Shown: positions 5,520 to 63,036 of the stretch, piece after piece
Position numbering within the stretch: the stretch's first letter is position 1
How the letters are laid out: each line of letters opens with the position of its first letter
Assembly (NCBI GenBank): GCA_951406725.2
Contig: OX597827.1
Coordinates: 62,062,001-62,126,000, forward strand
Source of the DNA: Octopus vulgaris
Lineage: Eukaryota
Length of the DNA stretch: 64,000 bases
Reading direction: 5' to 3'
Translations under genes and position numbers: made by a program
Notes under the pieces: generated by a model
The model's input: the letters and a program-made list of their open reading frames with translations, nothing else
Told to the model about the DNA's origin: nothing
The model's database searches: none

Positions 5520-6750
5520 TGTTTAAGAGATGAGGAATTATGTACATTATTTACATTATTTACATTTGACGGGTATTTGTCCTCATCTTGTTTGTTGTTA
5601 ACACAACGTTTTGGCTGATATACTCTCCAGCCTTCATCAGGTGTCTTGGAGAAATTTCGAGGATAGTCACATGACTGGTCTTAAAAAATTTTGTAGGTTT
5701 CCGCTATGTCCGTGTGTTAGTATGAAGTGAAAATGTTTAGCGTCGTAATTTAAGGCTGACACGGTTGACTGAAGATGTCTAGTGGTAATACTAAACAATC
5801 AATGCTCTGAATGTTTTCTGCTAAGTGTTTGTAGAGAATGAACACGTGATTAAGTTTAGAACTTTCTATACGCTTCCCGTTACGTACGTGCTTAGTGTCA
5901 CATGGCAGAATATTTTGCCCCTAAAATGATGGCTGACACGGTTGAGTGAACATGTCTAGTTACAATCAAGGCACTTCAAATTTAATCTGTTTGGTGGGAG
6001 AGTTGACAAGAGTCATTTATATGTAGTCCAGTGGTTAAAGTTTAGGTTGTTAGCTGTGTAGGTTCCTCATGTTAAGTGGCAGAATGAGTTTTATGTGTGA
6101 ATAGTTATTTGTGTATGTACTTTGTGAAAGTTTGTTAAGTATTGGTTTGTACTTTTGTATGAAAGTATTCTCTTTGTTTATCCGTGCTACATCTGTGGTT
6201 TTCACTGAACATAGGCAGGGTGGGAAGACCTGGAATTTAGGGGACTTATTTTTTGCACATATGTCTATGTGTCTACTCAGTGCAATCTGTCTAGTACTGG
6301 GGTCTCGTATTTGTTGCCGGTGGATGGCCAGTCTATTTCTTAGAGTAAGATTCGTTTGACCTATTTAATCTTCATGATATCCTTGACATTTGATAGCGTA
6401 AGCAAATTCCTTGAAGAACATGTAAAATGATTTTTAACGGTAAAAATCTGTCCTGAGTTGAATTTGTATGATGTGTCTTCAATAAGATTGACGCAAGTCT
6501 CACAATTGGGGCGGCCACATTTTTTGACTGTTGGTGTAGGAGTTGTGGAAGGTAATTTAGTACTTTTTTTTGAGAAACTTTGATTGTCTTTTGATTTGAT
6601 TGTTTTGTGTATTTCGAATGCTTGTTCCATTCTTGGGTCTTATCTTAGTAGTGGAATGCTCTGGTGGATAATATTGTAAACCACTGTGTTTCTTGGGTTT
6701 CTGTGTTGTAATAAAGGGTAGAGTATTGGATGTACCTGTTCTACCTGTTC
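5520..6750 (-). mobile_element. Penelope-like element 3' fragment: frameshifted GIY-YIG endonuclease, 3' UTR and terminal HHR
   Basis: ORF 6361..6630 has CGRPNCETC...FTVKNHFTCSSRNL. It continues out of frame as GQTNLTLRNRLAIHRQQI...LSRHIDIC...KENTFIQKYKPILN, the CCHH plus GIY-YIG signature of Penelope elements. Confidence 0.9.
5600..5645 (-). ncRNA. Minimal type I hammerhead of the Penelope terminal repeat (G12A decayed)
   Basis: Minus strand GACAC-CUGAUGA-A-GGCUG...CAGCC-AAAAC-GUU-GUGUU; helix II GGCUG/CAGCC; palindromic AACGUU. Confidence 0.75.
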
Positions 6751-34346: not shown

Positions 34347-34929
34347 ACAACAGTAACAGCAACAACAACAACAGCCACAACAACAACAACAACAACAATA
34401 GCCAGTCTCATTGCTTTACCGTTTCCATGTTTTAATCTACCTCCTACTTCTCTCGTCTCTCACCTCCACCTCCCACGGTTTCTTTTAAGCTATTTCTCCC
34501 CCTTTTTTTCCCCGAGTAAATCTCTTCGTCTTCTTCTCCCTTCTCGCCTGCTATTCTCCATTCCTTTCTCGACGTCAAATATCTATTAACTTCCTCCTAA
34601 CTATTATATGTGTTCAGCCAGCGTTAACATATTTAATGCAAGCAGTATATGTATTTCCAGTTAGCTTTTTAATGCTCGTTGCATTAAACGTGTTAACAAA
34701 ACTTTATTGGTTTTTCATGATGATGGCATCTCCGAATTTTTATTCTCTGAACAATTCTGTGTTCCTATTCCCACCAATGTACAATATTCTACATTTATTT
34801 AGCTAATCTTTCACCACTATTTCGGCGAAGTACGGTGAAGTCTATGTCTCGGTGATGAGGATAAAATATGGGTAGAAACATATTCAAAGTTATCACTCAT
34901 AGTTATCGAAAGTAATAACCATTATTATT

Positions 34930-35910
34930 ACTTTTACTTTAATCATGAAAAGGCGGTGAGATGGCTGAGTGGTTAGCACGCCGGGCAAAATGTTTACCGG
35001 CATTTCGTCCGTCATTATATTATGAGATCAAATCCCGCCGAAGTCGACTTTGTCTTTCATACTTTCGGGGTCCATAAATTAAGAACCAGTGAAACACTGG
35101 GGTCGATGTAATCGACTAGTCCCCTCCTCATAAATTTCAGGCCTTGTGACAATAGTAGAAAGGATTATTTTTACTTTAATCATAAAAAGACGGGGAGATG
35201 GCTGAGTTTTTAGCACACCGGGTAAAATGCTTTAATGGCATTTCGCCCGTCGTCACGTTCTGAGTTCAAATTTCGCTGATGTTGACATTGTCTTTCATCC
35301 TTTCGGGGTCGATAAAATAAGTACCAGATGAATACTGGGGTCGATGTAATCGACATACTCTTTCTTCCGAAAATGCTGACCTTGTGCCAAAGTTTGAAAT
35401 CATTATTAACATTAATTTAATCATAAAAAGGCGGCGAGCTGGCAGTATCGTTACCATGTCGGACAAAATGCTTAGCGGTTCTTTACGTTCTGAGTTCAAA
35501 TTCCGCGGAGGTTGACTTTGCCTTTCATCCCTTGAGGAGTCGATAAAATAAATGCTAGTCAAGTCCTGGTGTCGGTGTAATCGACTTGCCCCTTGCCTCA
35601 AAAAGTTCTGGTTCTGTGCCAAAATTCGAAACCAGGCGGCGAGCTGCCAGAATCGTCAGCACGCCGGACTAATGCTTGACAGCATTTCATCTGTCTTTAA
35701 GCTGTGTTCAAATGCCTCCGACGTCGACTTTGCCCTTCGTTCTTTTGGAGTCGATAAAATAAGTACCACTCAGTCACTGGGGTCAACGTAATCAACTAGA
35801 CTCCGTCCTCCCTGCAAAATTTCAGACCTTCTGTCTATAGGACAAAGGATTATCATTATTACTTTAATCATAAAAAAAGCGGTGAGGTGGCAGAATTGTT
35901 AGCACGCATT
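34930..35910 (+). repeat. Tandem array of ~4 S2 SINE units (~230-245 bp) plus a truncated fifth
   Basis: TTTAATCAT(A/G)AAAAG-G(C/A)GG junction recurs near 34937, 35175, 35416 and 35863. Confidence 0.8.
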
Positions 35911-36183
35911 TTCAATTTCATTTCCTCTACAGCCCTCCATATATATATATATGAATAGAAATATTAACATTTCTAAATCTCTCTAAAGGAGACTACGTCA
36001 CCGGTACTGGATATTAATACTTATCGCCAAGCTAATATGGCCGTCCAGGAAAATAGGACGAATGCTACCGTTGATTAGCTCCAAGAGCCCATCGCCTCTA
36101 GCTAGCTATGTGACACACAAACCTGTGTCCATTATAACCTTCGAACAGGAGAAGTCAACAGCTTCCCCTTCATGGTTTGAAAA

Positions 36184-36224
36184 CCACAGACTAGTTTCGG
36201 AGTAGTTGCCCCTTATGAATGTGG
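36184..36224 (-). ncRNA. Minimal hammerhead, U3-A8 variant with additional G5C
   Basis: Minus strand CCACA-UUCAUAA-GGGG(CAACUA)CUCC-GAAAC-UA-GUC-UGUGG. Confidence 0.75.
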
Positions 36225-36491
36225 AGTAGCCGAACCCAACAGGTGTCGCTGCTGACCGTCTGTTCGAAGGATTATTTACCTAAATTCAGTGGAATACACC
36301 CATTGGTTTTCTAAAATAGAAATATTAGCATTTCTAAATCTCTCTAAAAGAGACTAAGACAGCGGTACTGGATATTAATAATTATCGCCAAGCTAACATG
36401 GCAGTCTAGGAAAATAGGACGAATGCTGCCGTTGATTAGCTCCAAGACGCCATCGCCTCTAGCAAGCTATGTGACACATTGATAAGCTACT

Positions 36492-36532
36492 CCACATTGA
36501 TAAGGGGCAACTACCCCGAAACTAGTCTGTTG
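36492..36532 (+). ncRNA. Minimal hammerhead, U3-A8 covariant core
   Basis: CCACA-UUGAUAA-GGGG(CAACUA)CCCC-GAAAC-UA-GUC-UGUUG; palindromic ACUAGU helix III. Confidence 0.82.
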
Positions 36533-36599
36533 AATGTCAAACCAGCAAGGTGAAACTGCCGACCTTCCCTGTTCGAAGGTTATAATGGTCACAGCAGTC

Positions 36600-36897
36600 A
36601 GAGAGCGCAAACCTTCACAAAGGCAACACCAACGTCCTTTCAACGATTAGCCAGAGATGATTTTTAAAATGAGAGTATCTGAAATAAACTCGACTGCTCT
36701 CACAAACAAGAATACTAAAAATGAACCCGACCGCTCTCAAAAATTAAGTAAAAAAAAAGAAGAAGAATCCAGAATCCTTGTCCGGTACCGGATCGATCCC
36801 CAAATCTAGTCAGTTCGTGCAAGTCACGAGGCCAAACATTCCTGAAAGTTTCATCTGAATCTATCCACGAATAAACAAACACAACAGAAAACAATGA
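36600..36897 (+). mobile_element. Probable non-autonomous DNA element fragment (Crypton/Helentron-like)
   Basis: CCGGTACCGGATC...AAATCTAGTCAGTTC...AAGTTTCATC..AATC...AAACAAACA...GAAAACA layout resembles such elements from memory only. Confidence 0.3.
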
Positions 36898-36902
36898 TAG
36901 TA

Positions 36903-36960
<58 letters not shown>

Positions 36961-36962
<2 letters not shown>

Positions 36963-37516
36963 GCCCTGATGCAGTACCAGGCAGTGGCTCTCATGGCTTC
37001 TGATCTTAACTGATTGGAAGTGTCATCATGTACATTGTTTTGTCTTGGTATAAAAGATGGGCTACAGCAAATATTCTGCTCAATACCACAGATTTGCTTG
37101 TCAGTTGTTTGACCTTAACCAGTTGAGCATGTCCCTTAGTGGCTGACGATATGTGCATCTCTGATCACGAGCAGAAGTAGTGGGGGAGCATCATAGCCAT
37201 GTGTTGAGAGGGATTCTTTGGGGTTTGAATAATTCACCTCTGGAAACATGGGTGGTTCTTTCAACATCCTTAAACAACCCTTATTCAGGGACCTTTTGAG
37301 CGGGATGGGCTACTCAACCTGAAGAAAATTCTAACTGGGTCCCACCTGCAAGGTCATGTGCTGTTTATCGTGATATGAGATCACCATGTCGCGCACATAT
37401 GGTTGTGATGCATGTGCCTGGTGTACCCTTATCAGACGGGTAGTCATGATGGGTATATTGGGCTTCGTATATTTTACCCCAGTGTCACTTTGATGGCATG
37501 CACTGCTCTCTCACTC
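36961..37516. mobile_element. ~555-bp (TAA)n-embedded element, copy 1
   Basis: Bounded by (TAA)n on both sides; highly similar to 37577-38125. Confidence 0.85.
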
Positions 37517-37576
<60 letters not shown>

Positions 37577-37577
<1 letters not shown>

Positions 37578-38125
37578 TGCCCTGATGTAGTACCAGGCAG
37601 TGGCTCTCATGGCTTCTGATCTTGATTGGAAGTGTTATCATGTACATTGTTTTGTCTTGGTATAAAAGATGGGCTACAGCAAATATTCTGCTCAATACCA
37701 CAGATTTGCTTATCAGTTGTTTGACCTTAACCAGTTGAGCATGTCCCTTGGTGGATGACGATATGTGCATCTCTGATCACCAGCAGAAGTAGTGGGGGAG
37801 CATCATAGCCATGTGTTGAGAGGGATTCTTTGGGGTTTGGATAATTCACCTTTGGAAACATGGGTGGTTCTTTCAACATCCTTAAACAATCCTTATTCAG
37901 GGACCTTTTGAGCGAGATGGGTTACTCGATCAGAAGAAAGTTCTAACTGGGCCTCACCTGCAAGGTCATGTGCTGTTTATCTTGATATGAGATCACCATG
38001 TCGCGCACATATAGTTGTGATGCATGTGCCTAGAGTACCCTTATCAGACGGGTAGTCATGATGAGTATACTGTGCTTCGTATATTTTACCCCAGTGTCAC
38101 TTTGATGGCATGCACTGCTCTCTCA
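37577..38125. mobile_element. ~550-bp (TAA)n-embedded element, copy 2
   Basis: Same start ATGCCCTGATG and end GCACTGCTCTCTCA; same orientation; separated from copy 1 by (TAA)n. Confidence 0.85.
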
Positions 38126-38128
38126 TAC

Positions 38129-38198
<70 letters not shown>

Positions 38199-62074: not shown

Positions 62075-63036
62075 ATAATACGTTTGACTCTTTCCCATAC
62101 GGAATTCTTTTTTTTTTGATTTTGATTCCTTTATCTAATTAATTCATTTGACTGCAAACCAAGACTTTTGATGCGAAAACAGCCTCGGATATATTTCTGC
62201 CACAACATAGATGTCCTCAGTATGATTTTAAAGAACATCTGGTAGTGGTGGCCTCGGTTCGGAAGTTCCATGGTATCGAGCAATGCAGAACCACTTCTTA
62301 GCCACTGGTGTTGCTCGGTTTGCTTTGATGCGGAGTAATAACCCTTGTCACGGTCCCAGGTACAGTTCAATTAGCATGTCACGGAATTTCCTCCAGAAGG
62401 GTCACTCAGAAATACATAGATATGTAAGGGGTAAACATTTCTACATGCTGCGTTGGATACGATAGCTGTTCGCCTGGTATGTTGTTTTTGTTAATTCATT
62501 ATACATCTTGAATTATGCTTGCACTGAGGAGTAAAAAGTGCATAAATCTGCACCGATTACGAAATCACAGTGTGATATGCGGCTAAATTCTGTTTTTAAA
62601 TGACCTGCTTCGAGAATTGGTTTCGGTACGATGTGTTTATTTATTTTAGTAGTTTTGACTTTAAGAGACTCTCCTAGCGTGTGGCATCTATGTGTAAGAG
62701 TGCCCTCTATATAATATATATATATATTTCTCAGGAACTATTAGTCCTGACACCGTTTATTAACCGGTGTTGTTCAAACGATGAATAGCCCACGCGCAAT
62801 CCAATTGGTTCGTTTCGGTCTCTTACTTTATTATTATTATTAACTTTTTTATAATCATCTCATAATAATGACCTTTATGACTCGTATTACTACCTCAGTC
62901 CATCTAAATGTATATATTTGTCACTACCTGTCATAAATAGCCTTTTTCTATCTGCAATATGCATTTTCGTTGATTTTTCATATTTTATCCTTATATTTCC
63001 ACGTGTATTTTATATTTTCTTTTCGTAATATATTTC

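Follow-up and report, generated by a model that had tools for sequence, protein, structure and literature searches.

A decayed insertion of a dispersed 361-nt hammerhead repeat in the Octopus vulgaris genome, probably copied in trans by a Penelope-like element

Introduction

Metazoan non-LTR retrozymes are small non-coding repeats (mussel units are 350-390 bp) whose type I hammerhead has a short helix III of palindromic sequence; they adopt a stable predicted fold, generate TSDs of over 4 bp, and occur as heterogeneous variants alongside coexisting Penelope-like elements (PLEs), according to the account in PMC7229834, which also shows their expression and cleavage. The enzyme that moves animal retrozymes is an open question, and PLEs have been argued for from co-occurrence and homology (PMC7229834; bioRxiv 10.64898/2026.07.22.740005). 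PLE machinery has been proposed for the non-autonomous Xenopus retrozymes described as pLTR derivatives (bioRxiv 10.64898/2026.07.22.740005), and for non-autonomous Chlamys elements such as MRC1 (PMC8557442).

The pattern described for PLE insertions combines a partial tandem with a truncated copy in inverted orientation, a tail on one side and a bias towards microsatellites (PMC8557442). The in vitro counterpart of this tail is a pair of internal RT start sites (PMC11167929), and the combination of two internal start sites with a one-sided tail is described as PLE-specific in the texts of PMC11167929 and PMC8557442. The U3-A8 variant of the hammerhead was first reported in the pLTR of a PLE, Cercyon of Schistosoma (PMC4209133).

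Here we describe a hammerhead repeat, family B, from a copy in a 64,000-nt stretch of Octopus vulgaris DNA (the window). Family B resembles the metazoan retrozymes in all the structural and genomic features listed above. It differs from them, as they are described in PMC7229834, in its U3-A8 core, in occurring mostly as dispersed insertions of 1-2 units, in its inverted arms and in its two fixed start sites. With PLEs of the Neptune and Nematis type (PMC8557442, PMC11167929, PMC4209133), family B shares a partial tandem with an inverted 5'-truncated copy, a tail at one end, two internal starts, a microsatellite target and a hammerhead, including the U3-A8 variant seen in Cercyon; unlike PLEs it has no ORF, its tail is 57 nt against the 30-40 given for PLEs, and it has no similarity to the PLE termini that we fetched. 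Like the Xenopus and Chlamys units it is non-autonomous, but those are tied to PLEs by homology or co-occurrence, whereas family B is tied to them by the anatomy of its insertions, helper homology not having been found. Our literature searches turned up no paper on a family of this kind in cephalopods, and the word 'ribozyme' is absent from the main text of an octopus repeat-annotation paper (PMC13282606); the supplements of PMC7229834 and PMC4209133 cover additional species, among which relatives could be present.

Results

The family-B copy in the window comprises about 1.45 units with a period of 361 nt at 35954-36478, its sense lying on the minus strand, followed by an inverted segment. 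The direct repeat (35954-36117 and 36315-36478) is 92% identical over 164 nt, and the inverted arms (36123-36230 and 36486-36594) are 85% identical over 109 nt. The 12-mer CACATTGATAAG is present twice, at 36475 and 36493. The period, the tandem-plus-inverted layout with its coordinates, and the duplicated 12-mer at the junction had all been reported in the first-pass annotation and were borne out. The individual features are listed below.

35954..36314, minus strand: full 361-nt unit; unit position p corresponds to window position 36315-p, and the unit ends (3') at 35954, which represents the 'long' start site
36315..36478, minus strand: upstream partial unit covering unit 198-361, truncated at its 5' end and sharing 92% identity with the full unit
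36184..36224, minus strand: direct-arm type I hammerhead; G5>C at 36217 breaks the core; predicted cleavage between 36189 and 36188
36139..36270, minus strand: rod extending hammerhead helix I, with outer arms at 36139-36149 and 36260-36270
35954..36011, minus strand: 57-nt 'tail' lying between the two 3' ends preferred in family B (unit ~304 and ~360)
36475..36486, plus strand: inversion junction, a 12-mer copying 36493-36504, entered through CAC microhomology
36486..36594, plus strand: inverted arm corresponding to unit 85-192, with an outer end that lies off the family start sites and adjoins an unrelated repeat
36492..36532, plus strand: inverted-arm type I hammerhead; U3-A8 core intact, helix I imperfect; predicted cleavage after 36527
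35939..35952, no strand: (TA)n tract, the preferred target of family B, at the 3' end of the window copy

The long arm of the window copy terminates at the long site, beside (TA)n. At the junction, CAC microhomology leads into the hammerhead sequence, which is copied up to 36486, and copying restarts 18 nt upstream; we infer that the 12-mer is a templated insertion that arose as the ends were joined. Unit 192 is the last position of the inverted arm, next to which a high-copy repeat of another kind starts without its usual beginning, and the outer end of this arm was probably lost later. Such a loss would explain why no TSD is visible at the flanks of the window copy, one end of which is non-canonical. 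The copy belongs to the old subfamily and differs by 7.5% from the old-subfamily column majority. Since its long arm holds one broken hammerhead, it cannot be a monomer source, and it is probably dead.

Other repeats lie elsewhere in the window. An unrelated repeat of ~360 bp, with 1,252 first-look candidates, occupies 36593-36866 and sits in (AAT)n tracts elsewhere; beyond it, at 36904-38187, another repeat that is flanked by (AAT)n tracts is duplicated in tandem (615 bp, 95%). A SINE-like repeat that is frequent in the window forms four diverged head-to-tail copies, with a period of 205-240, at 34927-35904. A hammerhead-like motif with a CTGAGGA core, a helix I of 5 bp and a helix III of 4 bp lies at 62520-62582 on the plus strand, inside an apparent inverted-repeat region, and is possibly what the first-pass annotation called element A.

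We searched the genome (2.8 Gb, 227 contigs) for related sequences and found family B to be dispersed, with 2,630 first-look candidates, a figure that does not represent copy number. All 40 scored candidates were near full length, the 39 besides the window copy at 86-90% identity, and an exact search with a hammerhead pattern of 34 letters gave 54 matches, its reversed control giving 0. A single-copy unit with a local DNA duplication is excluded by this dispersed, multicopy family. We also recognised a younger subfamily, with copies 95-97% identical to its query, the best of which departs from the column majority at 3 letters. In five units, the longest ATG ORF was 29-55 aa, and the description of the element as a multicopy non-coding hammerhead repeat with PLE-type insertion architecture was upheld.

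A sister family, C, of ~358 nt and ~68% identical to B, carries a canonical C3-G8 hammerhead and gave 1,362 first-look candidates (L063:205-462 and L133-L151 among the loci fetched); its ends and its tandem and inverted architecture are the same as those of B. A look-up of sequencing runs holding the family listed none recorded as RNA; contigs from four runs, which we guess to be RNA, cover a young unit, and the profile of X1 parallels large runs of unrecorded kind. An empty-site check at L118 found that, among the joints listed, none skips the element, and two runs join flank to element. One young B insertion (L121:967-1856) has an inverted arm that is 17% divergent, the difference being concentrated in a replaced middle section, a replacement by which the hammerhead is lost.

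Read on the minus strand, the unit was predicted to form a rod capped by a type I hammerhead (z -3.36, with 0 of 100 shuffles as stable), in agreement with the extension of helix I that had been proposed. Circular folds of five units gave z values of -3.6 to -7.2 (25 shuffles), and the antisense strands behaved similarly. The hammerhead frame is present in both orientations in the window, as claimed earlier, but its core is TTGATAA, a U3-A8 variant, and not the CUGANGA form, and in the direct arm the frame is a single motif whose core is broken. Against a chance expectation of 0.07 matches, the window holds an intact core at 36497-36527 (plus strand) and the G5>C-broken core at 36190-36219 (minus strand). 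A search with Rfam returned no hammerhead match in this region of the window, nor in L114, L134 or L054, and a scan of the whole window gave solely microsatellite-driven matches among the best 150 of 410.

We then compared 122 hammerhead-framed segments, which were anchored on near-invariant letters and for which 28 old loci had been chosen by an intact-core pattern, and found pair 3-8 to be U-A in 68 of 69 old segments of family B and in all 34 young ones; in family C it was C-G in 18 of 19 segments. Paired swaps were seen across segments in helix I (CG/TA, AT/GC and CG/GC) and in helix II (GC/AT). Loop III stayed palindromic, reading CTAG in 64 of the 69 old segments and CATG in 31 of the 34 young ones, and a helix III that is both short and palindromic implies dimeric cleavage. 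The swap from C3-G8 to U3-A8 between sister families provides natural evidence of selection on the ribozyme core. In an alignment of 42 segments whose L-loci were not picked by pattern, pairing was retained in 88.8% of cells, against 29-49% when the partners were slid. Two-sided change was found in 148 cells against 59 when shuffled, and affected 21 of 40 pairs, a number reached by 54 of 500 shuffles, the kinship of the sequences inflating both counts. One locus, L114, carries three intact hammerheads in tandem and, as far as its predicted ribozymes tell, could serve as a monomer source.

We next mapped the ends of the insertions onto the unit. Family B has two fixed 3' ends, 57 nt apart, with variable 5' truncation. 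Of 88 arm 3' ends (59 loci: 58 old and the young L071), 25 lay at unit 300-309 and 40 at unit 350-361. At 52 of 88 loci (58 old, 30 young) an arm was longer than one unit, passing from the end of the unit on to its start; full-length matches were the selection criterion for two of the three locus sets, a choice that inflates the counts of arms over one unit and of long ends. The 5' ends of the arms were spread, with just 3 of 88 at unit 120-139, near the cut site (the same 59 loci). An inverted arrangement with 3' ends facing outward was seen at 39 of the 88 loci, and 22 of the 25 loci in which both outer ends were canonical paired a long with a short end. In the locus set that was not chosen for full length, inversion was seen at 13 of 28 loci, an arm over one unit at 6 of 28, and the long-plus-short pairing at 6 of 7. 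Inversion junctions overlapped by 1-7 nt in 20 of 39 cases. Canonical ends were followed by (TA)n in 33 of 42 cases among young copies and in 22 of 70 among old ones, compared to a background of 118 in 3000. TSDs of 11-14 bp could be read from the flanks of L008, L074, L100, L118 and L127; in family B they are often hidden by (TA)n. No attached ORF was found in the 1.5-kb flanks of B loci, so that an RT and GIY-YIG frame between pLTRs was not seen there.

PLEs are present in the same genome. Among 150 scored candidates, a GIY-YIG search gave 148 matches, many of them in identical open frames of 781 aa. This protein has RT and GIY-YIG domains, the RT match being below the Pfam cut-off, and a CX4CxxC linker, which is a mark of Neptune and Nematis. 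In the 781-aa PLE, the ORF is followed by a pLTR with a U3-A8/CATG hammerhead that ends in (TA)n. At L051-L055, L068 and L069, this young Neptune-like PLE has an upstream ORF of 333-479 aa overlapping the 781-aa RT-GIY-YIG frame, and none of these upstream ORFs gave a convincing Pfam match. A second PLE family (L056:2301-5480 and L057), 46% identical to the first in amino acids, shows a long arm in inverted orientation and a tail at one end only, and in its hammerhead-like motif the loop reads GTAC and the core CCGAAGA. A separate inverted element directly follows the PLE at L052, and the helix III of its type I hammerhead (L052:6282-6330, minus strand, and an inverted partner) is long. The window itself holds a frameshifted PLE C-terminal fragment at 6119-6717 (minus strand) with 44-46% identity to the 781-aa protein.

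A BLAST comparison (E<1) of the B unit with the termini of 40 PLE-derived loci (L031-L070) returned solely short AT-rich matches, and the second PLE family was likewise without sequence resemblance to B. By these comparisons, B is not the pLTR of the PLEs sampled, that is, of the 781-aa family or of that at L056 and L057. The PLE protein matched the fetched 1.5-kb flanks of B (59 and 30 loci) at one place only, L071, which is the same as L102. A neighbour link between B and the PLE at this place was considered and rejected as coincidental, the two lying tail to tail across a microsatellite of ~560 bp.

Discussion

Taken together, these results suggest that the window copy is most probably a decayed insertion of a dispersed non-coding 361-nt hammerhead repeat, a non-LTR retrozyme, that is likely copied in trans by a PLE protein. 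The helper is probably a Penelope-like RT/GIY-YIG protein of the Neptune type. A source locus with two or more units would be transcribed, and its hammerheads would pair through the palindromic helix III and excise a monomer that then circularises. Judging from the insertion anatomy, a PLE endonuclease would nick both strands ~11-14 bp apart at an AT-rich site, usually (TA)n. Reverse transcription would start from unit ~360 or ~304 and continue beyond both the end of the unit and the point of ribozyme cleavage; the insertions themselves show the fixed ends and the wrap-around, and their template would be a circle. At some four in ten of the loci sampled, a second cDNA would be primed by the second nick from the other start site of the same RNA variant, and microhomology would join the two truncated cDNAs, producing a tandem-plus-inverted form that is observed at these loci and for which this chemistry would account.

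The same element and PLE helper could also have operated on an uncleaved linear multimer transcribed from tandem loci, with no circular RNA involved, a possibility that we regard as real and yet doubtful. A multimer would explain the wrap-around arms just as well, tandem loci reach 2.6 units (L114), and insertion by a PLE in vitro used uncleaved RNA (PMC11167929); as hammerhead cleavage was dispensable for insertion by the PLE tested in that work (PMC11167929), circles are not required. However, compensatory change in three subfamilies has preserved the rod and the hammerhead, no long arrays were seen among the 88 loci, and the retrozymes tested in coral, mussel and axolotl accumulate as circles (PMC7229834), all of which argues against a multimer.

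It had also been suggested that the inverted piece derives from a second, different RNA molecule. The two arms of the window copy differ at 15 of 108 sites, compared to 13 of 164 for its tandem parts, and were sisters in only 6% of bootstrap trees. This excess is within chance (Fisher p=0.15), and all 15 differences are rare alleles on one side (9 direct, 6 inverted), with none at polymorphic columns. The arms moreover share three minor alleles that are jointly carried by just 3 of 73 other pieces. In a tree of hammerhead segments (69 rows, 108 columns), the check proposed with the suggestion, both arms fell in one 6-row group with support of 95/69, and joining them was not rejected (p-AU 0.57); pooled divergence was 10.5% for inverted arms and 10.8% for tandem parts. 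The differences between the arms thus represent private decay, and the suggestion is unsupported and, in our estimate, unlikely. As judged from the alleles, a second template of a different variant is largely answered against, and two RNAs of the same variant would be indistinguishable by sequence.

A further reading takes the unit as the pLTR of an unsampled autonomous PLE, the loci then being heavily 5'-truncated insertions. Every insertion mark is of the PLE type, and the U3-A8 hammerhead was itself first reported in such a pLTR (PMC4209133). We nevertheless consider this quite improbable, as what precedes unit position 1 at 52 of 88 loci is the unit's own 3' end, with no shared new flank upstream of that position in 59 loci, and as the pLTR of the true PLE in this genome has its ORF upstream and the single PLE protein match in the fetched flanks of B (L071 = L102) is placed tail to tail. 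Finally, LINE partners can yield 5' truncation, inversions and TSDs of 10-15 bp, but the lack of poly(A) and of a simple-repeat tail of its own, together with two internal start sites, a one-sided 57-nt tail and head-to-tail wrap-around, makes it extremely unlikely that B is a SINE-like element moved by a LINE (RTE/CR1) instead of a PLE.

Returning to the retrozyme copied by a PLE, we conclude from its sequence features that B is a new family within the known class of non-LTR retrozymes, likely mobilised by a PLE. Its multicopy unit of 361 nt falls within the ~150-450 bp of retrozymes, and a tandem of at least two intact predicted hammerheads, as expected of the class, is found at L114 and not in the window copy. 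The ribozymes form a series, from C3-G8/CTAG in the oldest sister family through U3-A8/CTAG in old B to U3-A8/CATG in young B, the last being the form of the hammerhead of the Neptune-like PLE. More speculatively, and we think this rather unlikely, B might be a long-lived circular-RNA parasite that carries no helper sequence, is recognised by its shape, and has a ribozyme that converged stepwise on that of its helper. If so, the ribozymes of parasite and helper could pair as a mixed dimer, and one RT dimer could prime both start sites of a single circle.

Family B adds insertion-level evidence for the mobilisation of retrozymes by PLEs, in that a PLE-specific signature is found on a protein-free RNA. 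Since young copies, a source-like locus with three hammerheads and intact candidate helpers are present in one genome, trans-mobilisation is testable here, and the published in vitro PLE assay would be applicable to family B.
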